Source of the DNA: Escherichia coli
GTDB lineage: Bacteria > Pseudomonadota > Gammaproteobacteria > Enterobacterales > Enterobacteriaceae
Strand: one strand, 5' to 3'
Assembly (NCBI RefSeq): GCF_051903065.1
Contig: NZ_CP178438.1
DNA length: 64,000 nucleotides
Shown here: positions 21,424 through 55,409 of the stretch, in pieces
How positions within the stretch are numbered: position 1 is the first letter of the stretch
Layout: the number at the start of each line of letters is the position of its first letter
Made by a program: the position numbers and the translations under genes
Notes under the pieces: generated by a model
What the model was told of the DNA's origin: nothing
What the model saw: the letters and a program-made list of their open reading frames with translations, nothing else
The model's database searches: none

Positions 21424-22725
21424 CTATTTAACGCGCGAGAAAAGTACCATCGATTCCAGATGTCCCGTGTGTGGGAACATATCCAGCATCGCCAGTCGCG
21501 CAATGGTATATCCTGCTTTTAATAACGCTTCGCTATCCCGAGCCAGCGTTGCAGGGTTACAGGATACATAAACTATACGAATAGGTTCCAGTTTTATAAT
21601 TTGCTGCATAACACCTGCGGCACCTGCTCGCGCCGGGTCCAGCAACACTTTATCGAAGCCGTTTTTCGCCCACGGCTGCTTTGTGACATCTTCTTCAAGA
21701 TTTTCGTGATAAAACGTCACATTCTGTAAGCCATTAAGACGCGCATTCTGCTGGCCTTTTTCCACCAGCGCCGGAACACCTTCTACACCCACGACACTGG
21801 CTGCTTGTGTCGCCAATGGCAGTGTAAAGTTGCCCATACCGCAGAACAGATCCAGTACGCGATCTTCAGGTTGCACATCCAGCCATTCCAACGCACGCGC
21901 TTCCATTTTTTGGTTCACACCCGCATTGACCTGAATAAAATCGCGCGGGCTAAAAGTTAAGCGCAACCCGTTTGAGTCATACCAGGGCATCTCACCAGAG
22001 ACGGTTTCGAGTATCTCACTATCGGGGGCGAGATACAGATCCAGGCCTTCAGAATGCGAAAAGCGTTCCAGTTTTTCGCGATCTGCCGAACTTAGCGGTG
22101 CGGTATGGCGCAAAATCATCAGCGTGCCGCTGGTTGCCTGTACTAGTTCAACATGACCAAGATGGCGCATAGCTTGTAAGCTGCCCAGGCATGCCCTGAC
22201 TTTGGGCAGCAATGCTTCAAGTTGGGGCACTAAAATGGGGCATTGTTTAACGTCGACAATGTCACTGGAGCCCGCTTTGCGAAACCCCATCTGAAGTTGC
22301 TGTGTTTTCGGTAAGTAGTTCAGACTTAAACGCGCGCGACGGCGATAGCCCCAGGGAACATCGGCGATCACTTCAGAGACTTCGTGTTTCATTAATCGGG
22401 CGAGTGCCGCACTTTTGCTTCGCTGCTGTAAATCCACGCTGGCGTGTTGTTGCTGACAGCCGCCGCATACGCCAAAATGAGGACAGCGTGGCGTTTCGCG
22501 TTCCGGGCTATCGCTTAACCGGCGTACGACTTTAGCGCGGGCATACTGTTTTTTATCTTCAGTAACAGTAACTTCCGCGTTTTCCTGCGGCAATAATCCG
22601 GGGATAAATAGCGTTTTGCCGTTATGTCGCGCCACGCCCTGACCAAAAGAGTCGAGGTCGTTGACTGAAACGGTTATGATCTGACGCGTCGTCGTGCGTC
22701 GTTTTGCAGAGTAGAATTGCGCCAT
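21424..22725 (-). CDS. rlmD: 23S rRNA (uracil1939-C5)-methyltransferase
   Basis: 433 aa; TRAM domain, Cys cluster for Fe-S, SAM-dependent methyltransferase fold. Confidence 0.93.
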
Positions 22726-22781: not shown

Positions 22782-25538
22782 ATGACCAACTACAGCCTGC
22801 GCGCACGCATGATGATTCTGATCCTGGCACCGACCGTCCTTATTGGTTTATTGCTGAGTATCTTTTTCGTCGTGCATCGCTATAACGACTTGCAGCGTCA
22901 ACTGGAAGATGCCGGTGCCAGCATTATTGAGCCGCTTGCAGTTTCTACTGAATATGGCATGAGCCTGCAAAATCGCGAATCTATCGGTCAGTTAATAAGC
23001 GTACTGCATCGTCGCCATTCCGATATTGTTCGCGCGATTTCGGTTTATGATGAAAATAACCGGCTCTTTGTCACCTCCAATTTTCATCTTGATCCCTCAT
23101 CAATGCAGCTCGGCAGCAACGTGCCGTTTCCTCGCCAGCTCACTGTCACTCGTGACGGCGATATTATGATCCTCCGCACGCCGATTATTTCTGAGAGTTA
23201 CTCCCCCGACGAATCGCCCAGTAGCGATGCCAAAAATAGTCAAAATATGCTGGGATATATTGCGCTGGAGCTGGATCTTAAATCGGTTCGCTTGCAGCAA
23301 TATAAAGAGATCTTTATTTCCAGCGTGATGATGCTGTTTTGTATCGGCATTGCGCTTATTTTTGGCTGGCGCTTAATGCGCGATGTAACCGGTCCGATTC
23401 GCAACATGGTGAATACCGTCGACCGCATCCGTCGCGGGCAACTCGACAGCCGGGTGGAAGGATTTATGCTCGGCGAGCTGGATATGCTGAAAAACGGTAT
23501 CAACTCGATGGCAATGTCGCTGGCTGCTTATCACGAAGAGATGCAGCACAATATCGACCAGGCGACGTCCGATCTGCGTGAAACGCTGGAGCAGATGGAA
23601 ATTCAGAACGTTGAGTTGGATCTGGCGAAAAAGCGCGCCCAGGAAGCGGCGCGTATTAAATCCGAGTTTCTGGCAAATATGTCACACGAGCTGCGTACAC
23701 CACTGAATGGTGTTATTGGCTTTACCCGCCTGACGCTGAAAACAGAATTAACACCAACGCAGCGCGATCACCTGAATACGATTGAACGTTCGGCAAATAA
23801 TTTGCTGGCAATTATTAATGATGTTCTCGACTTCTCGAAACTGGAAGCAGGTAAGCTGATTCTGGAAAGTATTCCATTCCCACTACGCAGCACACTGGAT
23901 GAAGTCGTTACTCTGCTGGCACATTCTTCTCACGATAAAGGGTTGGAATTGACGCTCAATATTAAAAGCGACGTGCCTGATAACGTGATCGGCGACCCAC
24001 TGCGATTACAGCAAATCATCACTAACCTGGTGGGGAATGCAATTAAATTCACCGAGAATGGCAACATTGATATTCTGGTAGAAAAACGTGCGCTGAGTAA
24101 TACCAAAGTGCAGATTGAAGTGCAGATTCGGGATACCGGCATTGGTATTCCTGAACGCGATCAATCGCGCTTATTCCAGGCCTTCCGACAGGCTGATGCC
24201 AGTATTTCCCGCCGTCATGGTGGCACCGGGCTGGGGCTGGTGATTACACAAAAACTGGTTAATGAAATGGGCGGCGATATTTCGTTCCATAGCCAGCCGA
24301 ATCGCGGTTCAACTTTCTGGTTCCACATTAATCTCGATCTGAACCCGAACATTATTATTGAAGGGCCATCCACCCAGTGCCTCGCCGGTAAACGCCTGGC
24401 CTATGTCGAACCAAACTCCGCAGCAGCGCAATGCACGCTGGATATTTTAAGTGAAACGCCGCTGGAAGTGGTTTATAGCCCAACGTTCTCCGCGCTGCCT
24501 CCCGCGCATTACGACATGATGTTGTTAGGCATCGCGGTGACCTTCCGCGAGCCGTTAACAATGCAACATGAGCGATTAGCGAAAGCGGTATCGATGACCG
24601 ATTTCCTGATGCTGGCACTTCCTTGCCATGCACAAGTCAATGCTGAAAAACTCAAGCAAGATGGTATCGGCGCGTGTCTGCTGAAACCATTAACACCTAC
24701 GCGCCTGCTGCCTGCCCTGACGGAATTTTGTCATCACAAACAAAACACGCTTTTGCCTGTAACCGATGAAAGTAAGCTGGCAATGACAGTCATGGCGGTT
24801 GATGACAACCCCGCTAACCTGAAACTTATCGGCGCATTGCTGGAAGATATGGTGCAACATGTGGAACTTTGCGATAGCGGGCATCAGGCGGTTGAACGGG
24901 CGAAACAGATGCCGTTCGATTTGATCTTAATGGATATTCAAATGCCTGACATGGATGGCATTCGGGCCTGCGAGCTCATCCACCAGCTCCCCCATCAGCA
25001 ACAAACGCCGGTTATCGCGGTAACGGCGCATGCAATGGCCGGGCAAAAAGAGAAGCTGCTTGGCGCAGGGATGAGCGATTATCTGGCGAAACCGATTGAA
25101 GAAGAGCGATTGCATAATTTGTTGTTGCGCTACAAGCCTGGCAGCGGTATTTCGTCTCGCGTCGTGACGCCCGAAGTCAACGAAATTGTGGTGAACCCGA
25201 ATGCGACCCTCGACTGGCAACTGGCACTACGCCAGGCAGCAGGAAAAACCGATTTAGCGCGCGATATGCTGCAAATGTTACTCGATTTCCTGCCTGAAGT
25301 TCGCAACAAAGTTGAGGAACAGCTGGTTGGAGAAAACCCGGAAGGCCTGGTTGATTTGATTCATAAACTGCATGGCAGTTGCGGCTATAGCGGTGTGCCG
25401 CGTATGAAGAATCTCTGCCAACTGATCGAACAACAGCTACGTAGCGGTACTAAAGAAGAAGATTTGGAGCCGGAGCTGCTGGAACTGTTGGACGAGATGG
25501 ATAATGTCGCGCGCGAAGCCAGCAAAATTCTCGGGTAA
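22782..25538 (+). CDS. barA: Hybrid sensor histidine kinase BarA (tripartite: HisKA-HATPase, receiver, HPt)
   Basis: 918 aa; N-terminal TM segments, HAMP, H-box SHELRTPLN, receiver domain, C-terminal HPt. Confidence 0.96.
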
Positions 25539-25610
25539 CGGACGTCTTGTCGAGTAGCAATCGGCTTTTTATGACGCTGGTTTCAGATTGGTGACAAAGT
25601 GCCTGTGTTT

Positions 25611-25709
25611 ATGCCGGATGCGGCGTTAACGCCTTATCCGGCCTACAAAACCAATTAAATTCAATAAATTAAAAAGCATGTAGGCCTGATAAGCGTAGCG
25701 CATCAGGCA
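25611..25709. repeat. REP/BIME palindromic elements downstream of barA
   Basis: gccggatgcggcgttaacgccttatccggcctac and inverted partner tgtaggcctgataagcgtagcgcatcaggc. Confidence 0.8.
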
Positions 25710-25770
25710 ATTTTGTGTTTGGCATCAGTCTCAAACCGGCTCCAGATAGAGCCGGTTTTGGTTTTTTGTC

Positions 25771-27111
25771 TTAACGCACCATGCACGGGCGCTTATTATC
25801 GAACGTCCAGCCAGGAATCAGATACTGCATTCCCATCGCATCGTCACGCGCGCCAAGCCCGTGTTTCTGATACAGCTCATGGGCTTTCATCACTTGATCC
25901 ATATCGATTTCTACACCCAGCCCCGGTTTTTCTGGCACCTGTACCAGCCCGCCTTTGATCTCAAACGGTTCTTTGGTCAGGCGCTGATTGCCTTCCTGCC
26001 AAATCCAGTGCGTATCAATAGCAGTAATTTTACCCGGTGCAGCGGCGGCAACATGGGTAAACATCGCCAGGGAAATATCGAAGTGGTTGTTAGAGTGTGA
26101 ACCCCAGGTCAGGCCAAATTCATGGCACATTTGCGCCACACGTACCGAACCTTGCATCGTCCAGAAATGCGGATCCGCCAGCGGGATATCAACGGATTGT
26201 AACGAGAGCGTATGGCCCATCTGCCGCCAGTCGGTGGCGATCATATTGGTTGCAGTCGGCAGGCCAGTCGCGCGACGGAACTCTGCCATCACTTCACGCC
26301 CGGAGAAACCTTGCTCCGCACCACACGGATCTTCTGCATAAGCCAGCGAACCTTTCAGGTATTTACCAATTTTAATCGCTTCGTTCAGCGACCAGGCACC
26401 GTTAGGATCGAGCGTAATACGCGCCTGCGGGAAGCGTTGCGCCAGTGCCACAATAGACTCGGCCTCTTCTTCCCCGGCCAGTACACCGCCTTTCAGTTTG
26501 AAATCGTTGAAGCCATATTTTTCATACGCCGCTTCCGCCAGGCGCACCACCGCATCCGGCGTCATCGCTTCTTCATGACGCAGGCGATACCAGTCGCATG
26601 AGTCATCCGGCTGGCTTTGATACGGCAGCGGTGTGGCTTTGCGATTACCGACGAAGAACAGATAACCGAGCATTTCGACTTCGCTACGCTGTTGACCATC
26701 GCCCAGCAGCGATGCCACGTTAACCCCCAGATGCTGCCCCAGCAGATCCAGCATTGCCGCTTCTATCCCGGTAACTACATGAATAGTGGTACGCAAATCA
26801 AATGTCTGCAAACCGCGCCCGCCGGCATCACGATCGGCAAAAGTATTACGCACCAGCGTCAGAACGTTTTTGTATTCACCCAGCGTTTTACCCACTACCA
26901 GCGGAATCGCATCTTCCAGCGTTTTACGGATTTTCTCGCCGCCGGGAATTTCCCCTACGCCAGTGTGACCAGAATTATCTTTGATAATCACAATATTACG
27001 CGTGAAGAACGGTGCGTGTGCACCACTCAGATTCATCAGCATACTGTCATGGCCCGCCACCGGGATGACCTTCATTTCAGTAACAACAGGCGTCGTAAAT
27101 TGAGAACTCAT
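25771..27111 (-). CDS. gudD: Glucarate dehydratase
   Basis: Enolase-superfamily protein, [39 protein letters not shown]...; start at the internal ATG (27111). Confidence 0.93.
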
Positions 27112-27131
27112 ATTTATGTCCTTTTTCAGAA

Positions 27132-28472
27132 TCAATGACGGCCGAAAACGGGACGTTTACGGTCAAAGGTCCAGCCGGGGATCAGGTACTGCATCGGGCC
27201 TGCGTCGTTACGCGCACCGCCAGGCAGACGTTTATAGGCCTCATGTGCCTTTTGTACCTGTTCCCAGTCCAGTTCCACGCCCAGACCGGGCGCATCAGGA
27301 ACGGCAATTTTTCCGTTTTTAATCTCCAGCGGATTTTGGGTCAGGCGACAATCGCCCTCCTGCCAAATCCAGTGGGTATCGATAGCGGTAGGATTACCCG
27401 GTGCCGCCGCGCCCACATGGGTAAACATCGCCAGAGAGATATCGAAATGGTTGTTGGAATGGCAGCCCCAGGTCAGCCCCCAGTCGTCGCAAAGCTGCGC
27501 CACGCGGACTGCACCGGAAAGCGTCCAGAAGTGCGGATCGGCAAGTGGAATATCTACCGCATTGAGCATCACCGCATGGCCCATTTCGCGCCAGTTGGTG
27601 GCGATCATATTAGTCGCGACGGGCAAGCCGGTCGCCCGCCGAAACTCCGCCATCACTTCACGTCCGGAGAAGCCCTGTTCTGCGCCGCATGGATCTTCGG
27701 CATAGGTAAGAACATCATTCAGCCCTTTGCATAAAGAAATGGCTTCATCAAGCAGCCAGGCACCGTTGGGATCAACGGTAATCCGCGCATCCGGGAAGCT
27801 TTTCTTCAATGCACGAACAGTGTCGATTTCTTGCTCGCCAGGTAACACGCCGCCCTTAAGTTTGAAATCTTTAAAGCCATAGCGATCCTGTGAGGCTTCC
27901 GCCAGACGCACAACGGCTTCGCTGTTCATCGCTTTCTGATGTCGCAACTGATACCACTCATGGTTGCCCGGCGTATTTTCCAGATAAGGAAGATCGGTTT
28001 TAGTCCGATCACCGATATAAAACAGATAACCGAGGACGGTGATAGCATCGCGTTGCTTGCCTGGCCCTAACAGTTCGCAGACCGGAACATTCAGCGCCTT
28101 ACCTAGCAGGTCAAGCAAGGCGGCTTCCAGCGCCGCCACGGCGTTAACGCGCAATTCAAAGGTCCAGGCCCCTTTACCGAAGGTATCAAAATCGGCGGCC
28201 TGATTACCTTTATGCACCTGCTGAACCACTTTATTCAGGCGCGCAACTTCCTGGCCCAGCACCATCGGAATAGCTTCGACCAGTGTTTGATAAATCACCT
28301 CTCCGCCCGGCGCTTCACCAATGCCGGTATGCCCGGCATTATCGGTGAGTACCACGATATTGCGGGTGAAGTATGCGTTATGCGCACCACCAATATTGAG
28401 CAACATGCTGTCATGTCCGGCGACCGGAATGACTTTCATATCAGTAATAACAGGACTGGATTGTGTCGTCAT
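27132..28472 (-). CDS. gudX: Glucarate dehydratase-related protein
   Basis: 446-aa paralog of gudD directly upstream in the same operon. Confidence 0.92.
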
Positions 28473-28473
28473 C

Positions 28474-29826
28474 TTATTGCCCCGCGACAGGTTTCAGCTC
28501 GATACGCTTGATATCGCCCACCAGCACCAGGTAGCTCAGTACCGCGATTAAGGCATGAACACCAACATAAATCAGCGCCCCATTAAAGGAGCCAGTCGTG
28601 CCAACGATATAACCAATTGCGATTGGCGTGACGATGCCAGAAATGTTACCGAACATGTTGAACAGGCCACCGGAAAGACCGCTGATCTCTTTTGGCGCGG
28701 TATCTGCCATTACTGCCCAACCCAGCGCCCCAATGCCCTTACCGAAGAAGGCCAGCGCCATAAAGCCGATGATCATCCACTCAACGTTGACGTAGTTGCA
28801 GAACACCATCACCATCGACAGCAACATGCCCATTACGATCGGTGTTTTACGCGCAATGTTCAGCGATCCCGTGCGGCGCATCAGCCAGTCGGAAATAATC
28901 CCACCCAGCACACCGCCGATAAAACCGCAAACCGCCGGAACGGAAGCCACAAAGCCCGCTTTCAGAATCGACATCCCACGCGCCTGCACCAGATAAACCG
29001 GAAACCAGGTAATGAAAAAGTAAGTCAGGGCGTTGATACAGTACTGACCGATATAAACGCCGATCATCATCCGTGACCCGAGCAGCTGTTTGATCTGCCC
29101 CCACTTCACGCTGAACGGCACTTTAACTTTGGTGTTTTGCTGATCCATATTGATCAGCGCGCCACCCGCGGCGATGTACTCCAGCTCTTTCTGATTTACC
29201 CCCGGATGTTGATTTGGCTCGTGGATGACTTTCAACCAGATAAAGCTGATGACAATCCCCAGACCGCCCATAAAGAAGAAGACGTGTGACCAGCCCACTT
29301 CATGCGTCAGCCAGCCCATAATCGGCGCGAAGATCACCGTTGCGAAGTATTGAGCGGAGTTAAAAATCGACACCGCCGTTCCCCTTTCCTGCGCCGGAAA
29401 CCAGGCCGCAACAATGCGACTGTTGCCGGGGAAAGATGGCGCTTCAGCAAGCCCGACCAGGAAGCGCAGCGTAAACAGGGCAACGATAATGCCGAATCCA
29501 CTAAAGATATCGACGAAGCCTTGCAGCAAGGTAAACATCGACCAGATAAAGATCGACCAGAAGTAGACGCGTTTTGAACCAAAACGATCCAGCAACCAAC
29601 CACCAGGGATCTGCCCGATAACATAAGCCCATGAGAAGGCAGAGAACACATAACCCATTCCCACGGGATCAAGGCCGATATCTTTGGCCATTTCCGAACC
29701 GGCAATAGAAAGCGTAGCGCGGTCGCCGTAGTTGAAGGATGTGACGATAAACAACATCACCACTATCCAGTAACGAGCATTCGTGCGTTTTTCCACACTG
29801 CTCGCAGCCTGACTTAAAGAACTCAT
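28474..29826 (-). CDS. gudP: Glucarate/galactarate MFS transporter
   Basis: 450-aa MFS permease; stop abuts the gudX start. Confidence 0.92.
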
Positions 29827-30151
29827 TGTTGCACTCCTGAAAATTCGCGTTAGCCACGCTCACTCTGGACTGCGACATCGCCAGGAAATCAGAGGTGACG
29901 TAGGGTGTTTTTTGCCGTTTTTATAGGTTGTTCGCCGAATACGGCGCGTGTTTATATCTGGCAATAGCAGTATAAAAAGCGCGCCATAGCGGCTCACCGT
30001 GCAACAACACAACATTAATGCGTTCAATGAGGCCCGATTTTGGCATTAGCCCTGGACGGTGGAATCCACTTCACGGAAATGAAAACAAGAACAAGAAAGG
30101 AAGGGTTAAAACGAAGAAATAAAGAAGAGTATGAAATGGATCGCTTGACTC

Positions 30152-30207
30152 CAGGCAAACGCCAGTAAAAATCCGCGCTATGAAGCAGTTTTTACTGGCA
30201 TTTGCCT
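30152..30207 (-). terminator. Long stem-loop downstream of yqcA (probable terminator)
   Basis: About 19-bp inverted repeat aggcaaacgccagtaaaaa ... tttttactggcatttgcct with an 18-nt loop, about 55 bp past the yqcA stop. Confidence 0.5.
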
Positions 30208-30260
30208 GAAAAGATTCGATTCAGCACCGCTAAAACGACATTTACCGCTCGCTGAACATA

Positions 30261-30710
30261 TCAGGACAACAGCGTGCCCCACTGTTCGACCCACGGATTT
30301 GATTCCGTTTCCGGTTCCGGGTTCTCACTGGCGTCAATCAACAGCATTTCGCCAACCCGCTGAGCGCTCTGTTCCTGCAACAAGGCATCGAACTGTTTGC
30401 CGCCATTGCAGAAATTCACATAACTACTGTCGCCGAGCGCAATCACGCCATAACGCAGATTCGGCTGGAAGCCCAGACTATCTTTGATTCCCTGAAAGAG
30501 CGGCACAATGCTATCAGGAAGGTCGCCCTGCCCGGTCGTGGACGTAACCACCAGAACATACTTATCCTGATAGGGCAGCCAGTCGCTTAATTCAGGATCT
30601 TCAAATACCGTTGCTTTGTGGCCCTGTGCGGTCAGAATTGCTTCTGCTTCTTCCGCCACTAACAGCGAATTTCCGTACATGGTGCCGACAAAAATACCAA
30701 TTTCCGCCAT
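30261..30710 (-). CDS. yqcA: Flavodoxin-like protein
   Basis: 149 aa, [26 protein letters not shown]... flavodoxin fold. Confidence 0.9.
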
Positions 30711-30727
30711 ACCGTTTTCTCCCTGGA

Positions 30728-31510
30728 TTAGGAACTTATCTCTCCATCCTGACCTGATGGCGCACTGAACTCAACCCTTTCATTTTCAGGAAGCAGACCG
30801 CGCCAGCCAAATTGTGATAACGCCTGCATCCAGGTGTCGTCCAGGCCCGCGTGAATAGTCAGCGGCTCGCCAGTAAAAGGATGCGTCAATGACAACTGAC
30901 TGGCATGCAGCATTAACCGCTGAAGACCAAAATGCTCAGCACCGCTGCGATTCTGGCGTAAATCGCCATGTTTGCTATCGCCAATAATCGGATGACGCAA
31001 ATGGGCAAGATGTCGGCGAAGCTGATGTTTGCGTCCGGTTTTCGGCTCCAGTTCCACCAGGCCGTAGCGCGTGGTCGGGTAACGTCCGGTCGCTACCGGC
31101 ATTTCTACGGTCGCCAGACCGCGATAATGCGTCACTGCTGGCTGCGGGCCTTTATCTTCGCGGGCAAATTTATCAGCGATTTTGTCCAGTTCTTCCACCA
31201 GTGGATAATCCAGCACCGCTTCTTCCATCAACCAGCCGCGCACAATCGCATGGTAACGTTTCTGGATTTGGTGCTGTTCAAACTGTTGTGCCAGCAGCCG
31301 TCCGGCCTCGCTGGATAATCCCATCAACAACACACCAGAAGTTGGTCGGTCCAGACGATGAGCAGTAAAAACATGCTGTCCTATCTGGTCACGCACGGTT
31401 TGCATGACCACTACTTTCTCGTCGCGATCCAGCCAGCTGCGGTGAACCAGCCAGCCGGAGGGTTTATTTACCGCAACCAGCCATTCATCCTGATAGAGTA
31501 TTTCCAGCAT
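30728..31510 (-). CDS. truC: tRNA pseudouridine(65) synthase
   Basis: 260 aa; RluA-family catalytic motif [13 protein letters not shown]. Confidence 0.93.
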
Positions 31511-31839
31511 TAGCTCGCATCATCCGCAAAAAGAGCATCCAGTTTTTCCAACTCAGCCAGAATAAGCGCGCGTTGCGGATGGTCCGTCGCCAGCGCCATT
31601 TCATAATAGGGAGCAACGGCAAAAGCGCCCGGTAACGGCTGGTTGTTATTTAACAAATCGTGCATTCGCGGGATCAGCACCCACTGCAACCACTCCAGTG
31701 GTTCCATGGTGTCCATAAAGAACGGTTGGGTACTATTAAATTGATGCGGCTGGGGTACATCGTTTCGCCAGTGCTGATGTTCACGCAGTAACGCTTCAAG
31801 CGCCTGCAACTGGAGACGAACGCGGTCATGAGTGGTCAT
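31510..31839 (-). CDS. yqcC: DUF446-family protein
   Basis: 109-aa ORF whose stop overlaps the truC start (TAATG). Confidence 0.85.
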   Translation of the reverse strand: MTTHDRVRLQLQALEALLREHQHWRNDVPQPHQFNSTQPFFMDTMEPLEWLQWVLIPRMHDLLNNNQPLPGAFAVAPYYEMALATDHPQRALILAELEKLDALFADDAS

Positions 31840-31882
31840 AAAGCAACCTCAATAAGAAAAACTGCCGCGAAGGATAGCAGGA

Positions 31883-32250
31883 ATAAAAAAAGGGAGCACT
31901 GTATTCACAGTGCTCCCGGTTCGTTTCGCAGCATTCCAGCTACATTTGTTGCTCCCTGCTCATCCTTGACAACTTTTCCTCTGGCCTTGCGGCCAATCGT
32001 TCATCCTGAACTATTGCTTCCTGCTCACACCACCCCGATGTGATACTTCATCCTGAAGTGTCCCTGGCCTTCCTGACCCACCGAATCATCCTGACCGGTT
32101 CTCATTCTCCATCCTGGAGGTGTCCTTTAACGCGTCCTGCGTCATCCTCTTCGCTTCATCCAGAAGCCTTTCCCTGAAACACCATCCTGGTGTGTCCTTC
32201 AGAAGTGTCATCATCCTGATGTTCACTTCGTTGTCTGACTCCCTGTCGAC
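31883..32250 (-). ncRNA. csrB: CsrB small RNA (CsrA-sequestering)
   Basis: About 368 nt on the minus strand with many CAGGATG / AGGATG motifs (seen as catcctg on the plus strand) and a 3' terminator hairpin gggagcactg...cagtgctccc plus T-run; matches the csrB sequence as I recall it. Confidence 0.95.
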
Positions 32251-32423
32251 GAAGATAGAATCGTCTTTTTCGCGAAGTCTTACAAGGCGCTTACAGACAA
32301 TGCCTTAAGGAAAATTTCATATGAAAGTTAGGAATTAACAAGCAACATGTTGTTTTTAAATGAAAATAACGATTCTTATCTTTTTAAGTATTCGCTTATT
32401 TCCTGGCGATCTCCTACAGAGTC

Positions 32424-32441
32424 TGTAAGAGATCTCTCACA
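32424..32441. promoter_or_regulatory. UvrY (BarA/UvrY) binding palindrome upstream of csrB
   Basis: 18-bp near-perfect palindrome tgtaagagatctctcaca about 175 bp upstream of the csrB 5' end. Confidence 0.7.
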
Positions 32442-32460
32442 ACCAGATGGGGTATTTGGA

Positions 32461-33006
32461 TTACAGAAGAGGCTTAAGTTGATTAAGGAATTCCGCAAGA
32501 TTTGAGGCTAAATGCGTCCGTTTACGTGTTCCCAGCGTCTCTTTACACACTTCACCGGAGAGATTACACACCGAGATGACCTCTAACTCTTCTTCCAGCG
32601 TCGCGATAAATAGCGTGGGTGGCAGTTTTAGCCTTTTCTGAGTCACCAGATGACCAATCAGATTTTCCTGCACCCGACGGAAGTCGTCTTCACTCCAGGT
32701 TTGCAGCAATGTCAGTTTGATATCGCCAAACTGCGCGTGCATATCCCCGGCAAACTGAGTCGTATAAAAGGTATGAATTGTGGGTTGTATCACAATATCA
32801 AAAGCGCGTTCAACCGCGTTTACATTTTGTTCCCCGGTAAACGGCTGGGGTTGCCAGTATACGGCATCTTCAGTAGTTGAAATAATGCACGGTGAAGGAA
32901 CGCCGTACAGTTCCTCACTTAACGGCCAGCTTTTATGCTCTTCATGCCACGCATCGCAGTAGCGTGCAGTAAAATCTTTCAGGGCTTGTGCGGTCAAATC
33001 GTCCAC
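32461..33006 (-). CDS. syd: SecY-interacting protein Syd
   Basis: 181 aa, [41 protein letters not shown]... Confidence 0.92.
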
Positions 33007-33073: not shown

Positions 33074-33922
33074 ATGTCTTCTTATGCAAACCATCAGGCA
33101 CTTGCGGGCCTGACTCTTGGAAAATCAACCGATTACCGGGATACCTATGACGCCAGCCTACTGCAAGGCGTTCCACGCAGCCTGAATCGCGACCCGCTGG
33201 GTCTGAAAGCGGATAACCTGCCTTTTCACGGTACGGATATCTGGACGCTGTATGAACTTTCCTGGCTGAATGCGAAAGGTTTGCCGCAGGTCGCTGTCGG
33301 TCATGTTGAACTTGATTACACCAGCGTAAATCTGATTGAGTCGAAGAGTTTTAAGCTCTATCTCAACAGTTTTAACCAGACGCGTTTTAATAACTGGGAT
33401 GATGTGCGCCAGACGCTGGAGCGCGACTTAAGCACTTGCGCTCAGGGTGAGGTTAGCGTGGCGTTATATCGTCTTGATGAACTGGAAGGCCAGCCGATAG
33501 GTCATTTCAATGGCACTTGCATTGATGACCAGGATATCACTATCGATAACTATGAATTCACTACTGACTATCTGGAGAATGCCACCAGTGGTGAAAAAGT
33601 AGTGGAAGAGACGCTCGTCAGCCACCTGCTGAAATCAAACTGCCTGATCACCCATCAACCAGATTGGGGTTCGATCCAAATTCAGTATCGTGGACGCCAA
33701 ATTGACAGAGAAAAACTGCTGCGTTACCTGGTCTCATTCCGTCATCACAACGAGTTCCACGAACAGTGCGTGGAACGCATCTTTAATGACCTGTTACGCT
33801 TCTGCCAGCCAGAGAAATTGAGCGTTTACGCACGTTATACCCGTCGTGGCGGTCTGGACATTAACCCGTGGCGCAGTAATAGCGATTTTGTCCCATCGAC
33901 CACCCGACTGGTTCGGCAATAA
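33074..33922 (+). CDS. queF: NADPH-dependent 7-cyano-7-deazaguanine (preQ0) reductase
   Basis: 282 aa, two-domain QueF type II. Confidence 0.93.
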
Positions 33923-50421: not shown

Positions 50422-50627
50422 ACTTCCTGAGCCGGAACGAAAAGTTTTATCGGAATGCGTGTTCTGGTGAACTTTTGGCTTACGGTTGTGATGTTGTGTT
50501 GTTGTGTTTGCAATTGGTCTGCGATTCAGACCATGGTAGCAAAGCTACCTTTTTTCACTTCCTGTACATTTACCCTGTCTGTCCATAGTGATTAATGTAG
50601 CACCGCCTAATTGCGGTGCTTTTTTTT
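50422..50627 (+). ncRNA. gcvB: GcvB small RNA
   Basis: Begins acttcctgagccggaacgaaaag..., contains the GU-rich tracts tgtgatgttgtgttgttgtgtttg, ends with terminator gcaccgcctaattgcggtgcttttttt; divergent from gcvA. Confidence 0.95.
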
Positions 50628-53610: not shown

Positions 53611-53718
53611 ACGCATAAATGCCTGATGCGCTACGCTTATCAGGCCTACATAACTCCTGCAATATTTTGGATTTGCATGATTTGTAGGCCGGATAAGGCG
53701 TTCACGCCGCATCCGGCA
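53611..53718. repeat. BIME (pair of inverted REP elements)
   Basis: gcctgatgcgctacgcttatcaggcctac and inverted tgtaggccggataaggcgttcacgccgcatccggca. Confidence 0.8.
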
Positions 53719-55111: not shown

Positions 55112-55188
<77 letters not shown>

Positions 55189-55221
55189 ATTAAAATTTGA
55201 TGAAGTAAAGCAGTACGGTGA

Positions 55222-55298
<77 letters not shown>

Positions 55299-55332
55299 AT
55301 CAAAATTTGATGAAGTAAAAGCAGTACGGTGA

Positions 55333-55409
<77 letters not shown>

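Follow-up and report, generated by a model that had tools for sequence, protein, structure and literature searches.

The subject of this analysis was the barA–csrB region of a 64,000-nucleotide stretch of Escherichia coli DNA (contig NZ_CP178438.1 of the RefSeq assembly GCF_051903065.1; hereafter, the window). In this region lie the gene of the sensor kinase BarA, the gene of the small RNA CsrB, which sequesters CsrA, and, upstream of csrB, a site for phosphorylated UvrY (UvrY-P). Judging by its sequence, the window very probably represents the E. coli chromosome with the canonical barA–csrB region and every mapped element in it; the probability of this reading was estimated at about 0.96. The circuit formed by BarA, UvrY and CsrB has already been published, as have the 18-nt UvrY site and its position, and the locus is not new. 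The elements concerned are listed below; signed positions are relative to the start (+1) of csrB, and majority fractions refer to the comparison across genera.

22782..25538, plus strand: barA, encoding the tripartite sensor histidine kinase BarA of 918 amino acids (open reading frame and NCBIfam NF008318)
31882..32250, minus strand: csrB, encoding the CsrA-sequestering small RNA of 369 nt (Rfam RF00018 and alignment with K-12)
31892..31917, minus strand: intrinsic terminator stem-loop of csrB (terminator scan; 11-pair stem with 7 GC pairs)
32255..32285, minus strand: core promoter of csrB, with the -35 element TTGTAA at 32285..32280 and the -10 region GATTCTAT at 32262..32255
-12..-5, minus strand: -10 block GATTCTAT, majority fraction 0.96
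-35..-27, minus strand: -35 block TTGTAAGAC, majority fraction 0.91
32315..32326, minus strand: perfect 12-bp palindrome TTTCATATGAAA at -76..-65, with a single exact occurrence in the window
32343..32355, minus strand: putative IHF element at -105..-93, AAACAACATGTTG in the window and AATCAAAATGTTG in K-12, majority fraction 0.75
32405..32418, minus strand: third UvrY-type half-site TGTAGGAGA(TCGCC), 5 bp downstream of the inverted repeat, majority fraction 0.86
-168..-155: long form of the third half-site, TGTAGGAGATCGCC, majority fraction 0.86
32424..32441, minus strand: UvrY-P site, an 18-nt near-perfect inverted repeat, TGTGAGAGATCTCTTACA on the csrB strand, at -191..-174 and centred at -182.5

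The inverted repeat was found once in the window, at 32424..32441, where it reads TGTAAGAGATCTCTCACA on the plus strand. No match to this 18-mer appeared in 100 shuffles of the window, even when two mismatches were allowed, and none was expected. Other boxes of the UvrY/GacA type (TGTRAGN6CTYACA with at most one mismatch) were absent from the rest of the 64 kb. Such boxes are known from Pseudomonas, where the orthologous two-component system GacS/GacA activates CsrB-type sponge RNAs, RsmY and RsmZ, through the far-upstream palindrome TGTAAG-N6-CTTACA; these two RNAs belong to Rfam families different from that of CsrB.

In E. coli, UvrY-P was localised by chromatin immunoprecipitation with exonuclease digestion (ChIP-exo) and by DNase I footprinting to the 18-nt inverted repeat TGTGAGAGATCTCTTACA, "centered at -183/-182" of csrB (Zere 2015, PMC4682653). 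According to the same study, UvrY crosslinked to csrB over -222..-142, DNase I protection was restricted to the upstream inverted repeat, and a partial repeat, TGTAGGAGA, lies 5 bp downstream of it. For K-12, BarA-dependent binding was shown by ChIP-exo, ChIP-PCR and footprinting in that work. The box in the window coincided with the published site in both sequence and position. The partial repeat was also found as published, at 32418..32410 (-168..-160), after the 5-bp spacer GACTC. The sequence-only reading of this stretch had placed an 18-bp palindrome about 175 bp upstream of csrB and had named alignment with the mapped UvrY site as the check on which that claim should stand or fall. The alignment agreed in sequence and position (PMC4682653), and the distance is right when it is taken from the proximal edge of the box, which is separated from +1 by 173 bp. 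The palindrome is real and unique in the window, but it is a near-palindrome rather than a perfect one, being self-complementary at 16 of its 18 positions, so that the reverse strand differs at two. Since the site is identical to that of K-12, where UvrY binding in vivo was about 35-fold lower without BarA (PMC4682653), it would be expected to bind UvrY-P in a BarA-dependent manner.

Because the inverted repeat directly follows syd, an open reading frame on the same strand whose stop codon is 19 bp from the box, it might be regarded primarily as the terminator of syd and not as an activator site. This is hardly credible. The two 9-nt arms are A/T-rich and abut without a loop, the sequence that comes next is GACTCTGTAGG, with no T-run, and the terminator scan did not flag the repeat; on these three grounds, the palindrome was rejected as a syd terminator. 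Moreover, an identical sequence was protected by UvrY-P in footprinting in vitro and gave crosslinks in vivo (PMC4682653), and the quantity conserved across genera is the distance of the repeat to the +1 of csrB.

Conservation of the site was considerable both within the species and beyond it. Of 5,425 E. coli genomes, 4,377 had the 56 bp around the box at 100% identity, and the others, with one exception, had them at an identity of 95% or more. For comparison across genera, 71 loci around relatives of BarA were fetched with 10-kb flanks, one genome per species; no Salmonella locus was among them. Of the 30 other promoters, 23 had the identical inverted repeat (majority fraction 0.97), and the spacer between the box and the promoter was otherwise poorly conserved (majority fraction about 0.5). 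In all loci examined in which csrB lies next to barA, the box was located at -189..-195, and in most of them, it occupied -191..-174. For Salmonella enterica, where the system is BarA/SirA, the same 18-nt inverted repeat centred at -182/-181 and an IHF site between the repeat and the promoter are described in the text of PMC4682653.

The box showed two further properties. In the csrB promoters of a few genera (loci L022, L043, L028 and L045), its asymmetry was flipped, the csrB strand carrying TGTAAGAGATCTCTCACA and not TGTGAGAGATCTCTTACA; therefore, the G/A asymmetry has no fixed orientation with respect to the promoter. In addition, a GATC (Dam) site was present at the centre of the inverted repeat, within AGATCT (32431..32434), and a second one was found 23 bp downstream, in the third half-site (32408..32411). 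Both GATC sites were kept along with the box in most genera. In the literature on Dam or GATC and csrB, judged by title and abstract, nothing was found that links Dam methylation to the UvrY site of csrB.

The csrB gene itself was identified by its Rfam match, which scored 384 bits against a gathering score of 71 (E = 1e-111), covered positions 1-356 of the 356-position model and extended over 31882..32241 on the minus strand. The match ends at 32241 because the RF00018 model begins 9 nt inside the RNA; the 369-nt csrB annotated in K-12 aligned to 31882..32250, which places +1 at 32250. The two RNAs were identical at 366 of 369 positions, the differences being at 32199, 31944 and 31911. CsrB of the window has 22 GGA motifs and 9 CAGGA[UAC]G motifs, counts equal to those of K-12 csrB, and none of the three substitutions removed a GGA. 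With 99% identity to CsrB of K-12, the RNA would be expected to bind and sequester CsrA. The tail of the intrinsic terminator is TTTTTTTATT, and its T-run reaches 31882. To judge from the sequence of the stem, the substitution at 31911 (G in K-12, A in the window) would convert a G·U pair of the terminator to A-U and thereby strengthen it.

The 210 bp between syd and csrB hold the UvrY box, the half-site, the IHF-like element, the palindrome and the core promoter. The -35 and -10 elements were placed by their position relative to +1 and by conservation across genera; they were among the most conserved blocks of the 31-sequence promoter alignment. A generic sigma-70 consensus scan of 31800..32520 gave no match, as expected, since the csrB promoter is weak and depends on an activator. 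In comparison with the csrB promoter of K-12, the UvrY inverted repeat, the half-site, the -35 element and the -10 element had the same sequence and the same position.

BarA matched the NCBIfam equivalog NF008318 with 1623.9 bits against a cutoff of 890, residues 1-917 being aligned to the 920-position profile, and it was identical to BarA of K-12 at all 918 of 918 positions. The phosphorylation sites of BarA are H302, D718 and H861. All three were present in the alignment (SH302ELRTP, LILMD718IQ and IH861KLHGS). The gene of the response regulator lies outside the window: when the window was searched by tblastn with UvrY of K-12, the sole match was the receiver domain of BarA, at 29% identity. 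In K-12, uvrY is located at about 1.995 Mb and csrC at about 4.051 Mb, and barA and csrB lie at 2.915-2.925 Mb.

Taken with established knowledge and the published data, these elements would work in the following way. BarA would autophosphorylate and pass the phosphate from H302 to D718, then to H861 and finally to UvrY, which is encoded elsewhere on the chromosome. A dimer of UvrY-P would then bind the 18-nt inverted repeat centred at -182.5 of csrB. IHF would probably bend the approximately 130 bp between the repeat and the promoter, helping the distant activator to act at the weak -35 and -10 elements. The resulting 369-nt CsrB, with its 22 GGA motifs, would sequester CsrA dimers.

No observation contradicts the reading that the window carries the canonical region with all of its elements, but it is subject to some caveats. 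IHF is needed for full activation of csrB (PMC4682653). With UvrY-P and IHF alone, csrB transcription was not reconstituted in vitro (Zere et al., PMC4682653), which leaves the published mechanism incomplete. The other caveats concern the IHF-like element. An IHF site has been reported between the two UvrY crosslinks at csrB (PMC4682653), its sequence being given in a figure only; we infer that the element at -105..-93 is this putative site. Over 621 bp, the window differed from K-12 MG1655 by seven single-nucleotide polymorphisms (SNPs), three in the csrB RNA and four in the promoter spacer. The latter are at 32353, 32349, 32342 and 32331, that is, at -103, -99, -92 and -81, and the first three fall in the IHF-like element. 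The K-12 sequence AATCAAAATGTTGATT matches the IHF consensus WATCAANNNNTTR perfectly on both strands, the two matches overlapping, whereas the corresponding sequence of the window, AAACAACATGTTGCTT, has one mismatch to WATCAANNNNTTR on each strand. The allele of the window is a minority one: over -150..-51, an identity to the window of 99% or more was seen in 442 of 5,425 E. coli genomes (about 8%). The genomes with this allele include O157:H7, and most others, at 96% identity, are of the K-12 type. With a mismatch on each strand, csrB activation could differ quantitatively from that in K-12.

It may be asked whether the locus is impaired in the strain of the window, its IHF element having been degraded by the SNPs at -103, -99 and -92. 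In favour of impairment, K-12 has two overlapping perfect matches where the window has one mismatch in each, and in ihf mutants of K-12, CsrB was about 10-fold lower (PMC4682653). However, this allele is a fixed variant of hundreds of natural isolates, O157:H7 among them. The consensus position that was changed (T to A) is also A in seven other genera, and the pattern WWWCAnnnnnTTR, which describes the element across genera in the 31-sequence alignment, has its invariant CA and TT(R) preserved in the window. Besides, IHF is generally known to tolerate considerable degeneracy of its sites. Impairment is therefore unlikely, and the IHF-like element of the window is probably functional. The description of the locus as apparently intact in the sequence-only reading thus held for the UvrY site, the promoter, the csrB RNA and BarA, but it has to be qualified for the putative IHF element, which is a variant allele with one consensus mismatch per strand.

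Between the IHF-like element and the core promoter lies the perfect palindrome TTTCATATGAAA. Among 30 other csrB promoters of Enterobacteriaceae, 14 carried it with no more than two mismatches, and its majority fraction was 0.72, compared with about 0.5 in its flanks. Upstream of csrC in K-12, a loose A/T-rich counterpart, TTTTATATAAAA, was found at -80..-69 of the RefSeq start; the published numbering of csrC is apparently offset from that start, so that the two palindromes are only tentatively equivalent in position. In the searchable literature, the string TTTCATATGAAA occurred in unrelated contexts only, and no description of it at csrB was found. It is speculation to propose TTTCATATGAAA as a candidate site of an additional factor. 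That it binds such a factor needed for csrB transcription is doubtful, as is the weaker variant in which the proximity of barA and csrB or the GATC sites are regulatory.

The genes surrounding barA and csrB were named from the listing of open reading frames and NCBIfam, together with the annotation of K-12, and are as follows.

21424..22725, minus strand: rlmD (open reading frame listing, NCBIfam)
25771..29826, minus strand: gudD-gudX-gudP, encoding glucarate dehydratase, its paralogue and a transporter (open reading frames, families, K-12 annotation)
30261..30710, minus strand: yqcA, encoding a flavodoxin (open reading frame, family, K-12 annotation)
30728..31510, minus strand: truC, encoding tRNA pseudouridine-65 synthase (open reading frame, family, K-12 annotation)
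31510..31839, minus strand: yqcC, encoding a DUF446 protein (open reading frame, family, K-12 annotation)
32461..33006, minus strand: syd, the upstream neighbour of csrB, encoding a SecY-interacting protein (open reading frame, family, K-12 annotation)
33074..33922, plus strand: queF (open reading frame listing, NCBIfam)

The order rlmD-barA-gudDXP-yqcA-truC-yqcC-csrB-syd-queF is that of K-12 MG1655 at 2.913-2.926 Mb, and from barA (b2786) to csrB (b4408), the two gene orders were identical, the barA-gudD intergenic region being offset by 1 bp in the window. The 721 bp around csrB were found at an identity of at least 95% in 5,425 of 5,426 complete E. coli genomes. The genes yqcA, truC and yqcC (30261..31839) lie directly downstream of csrB on the same strand, and their order is kept across genera. 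The gudDXP genes are variable cargo that separates barA from the csrB block and are outside the signalling pathway. Elsewhere in the window, there were an Rfam match to GcvB (50422..50627, 199 bits), three tandem tRNAs with identical scores (55112..55406) and a match to the small RNA ES036 (CssrF) on the minus strand (53642..53684), all as expected for that region of E. coli.

The stop codon of barA is 6,343 bp from the 3' end of csrB, 6,712 bp from its +1 and 6,903 bp from the far edge of the UvrY box. The statement in the sequence-only reading that barA and csrB lie within 7 kb of each other is thus correct. The same reading described a signalling module that is physically linked to its output RNA. 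Here, the proximity is true, but it reflects inherited gene order, UvrY is not encoded in the window, and csrC is distant in K-12.

To characterise this linkage, csrB was searched in the fetched loci by nhmmer, the nhmmer-negative loci were re-scanned with Rfam, and neighbouring proteins were located by tblastn, which gave a gene-order table of about 50 loci. The loci re-scanned with Rfam likewise yielded no csrB. All Enterobacteriaceae loci with enough downstream flank had the order rlmD-barA-[cargo]-yqcA-truC-yqcC-csrB-syd-queF. Between the barA stop codon and the csrB +1, there were 2,037 to 9,310 bp in Enterobacteriaceae and up to 9,771 bp overall. This distance was about 2.0-2.1 kb in loci with yqcA directly next to barA (E. 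albertii, RIT691), about 7.6-7.9 kb in loci with gudDXP and larger where extra genes are inserted (Citrobacter). The gud operon was missing from this position in E. albertii, Pluralibacter gergoviae, RIT691 and Citrobacter R56. In the E. albertii locus (L003, 12754..12860), the gap between barA and yqcA is about 105 bp and has no gudDXP; the same interval in the E. coli window (25539..30260) is 4.7 kb. The barA–yqcA junction is thus a variable cargo slot across Enterobacteriaceae.

In Erwinia, Mixta and Pantoea, the same order was found, but yqcA did not appear before the end of the 10-kb flank; the csrB of Pantoea stewartii was reached at 9.8 kb. Loci whose flank ends at yqcA or yqcC (L005 and loci of Erwinia, Mixta and Pantoea) were not counted as lacking the linkage, and csrB probably lies just past the fetched flank in them. 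Within 10 kb on either side of barA, no csrB was found by nhmmer and Rfam in Yersinia, Rahnella, Rouxiella, Edwardsiella or Moritella. Among more distant relatives, Moritella JT01, whose BarA relative has 47% identity, lacked a csrB by Rfam within 10 kb of its kinase gene, and Moritella PE36 (47%) and Alcanivorax (35%) were csrB-negative by nhmmer only. To our knowledge, rsmY and rsmZ are not adjacent to gacS in Pseudomonas either.

Two of the loci had unusual csrB genes. In an uncultured Enterobacteriaceae metagenome-assembled genome (L028, 15982..17038), there were two tandem csrB copies, identical at 366 of 371 positions and with 24 GGA motifs each. Each copy had its own UvrY-type inverted repeat at about -191, and the spacer DNA differed between them. 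By its sequence, this looks like a local duplication of csrB with diverged promoters or, less probably, an assembly artefact. In Pseudocitrobacter faecalis (L011, 20249..20666), the csrB match consisted of two nhmmer segments that overlap in the query (1-98 and 54-368), which suggests an internal duplication of about 50 nt that would add CsrA-binding repeats.

The proximity of barA and csrB could have a function of its own if, for example, co-translational insertion of BarA into the membrane tethered the region, so that UvrY was phosphorylated near the csrB promoter and selection kept the genes within a few kilobases. Indeed, no Enterobacteriaceae locus with sufficient flank has lost the proximity, and Erwiniaceae have retained the order, despite the turnover of cargo. 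However, the whole block, including rlmD, truC, yqcC, syd and queF, is equally conserved, as vertical inheritance predicts, and the width of the gap differs about five-fold between loci (2.0 to 9.8 kb). Yersinia, Rahnella, Rouxiella, Edwardsiella and Moritella have BarA orthologues but no linkage within 10 kb. Furthermore, csrC, on which UvrY acts just as strongly (PMC4682653), is unlinked in K-12, as is uvrY. A functional role of the proximity is thus very improbable. Because the unrelated housekeeping genes of the block are equally conserved, it may be concluded that the adjacency of barA and csrB is an old inherited gene order, which Enterobacteriaceae have in common with Erwiniaceae, the two genes being farther apart in the latter, and is not a requirement of the pathway. 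The gene order is not evidence of a functional module, and nothing supports a role for proximity.

For the biology of the species and its family, these results have three consequences. Natural E. coli populations hold two alleles of the IHF-like element of csrB, and the promoter has in addition a conserved palindrome at about -70. Across more than 25 genera, the distance of the UvrY box to the start of csrB is nearly fixed (about -191..-174), which fits an activation by looping that depends on phase or geometry and is assisted by IHF. Finally, the adjacency of barA and csrB is a gene order conserved at the level of the family, with a variable cargo slot that sets the two genes 2-10 kb apart, and not a functional "module".

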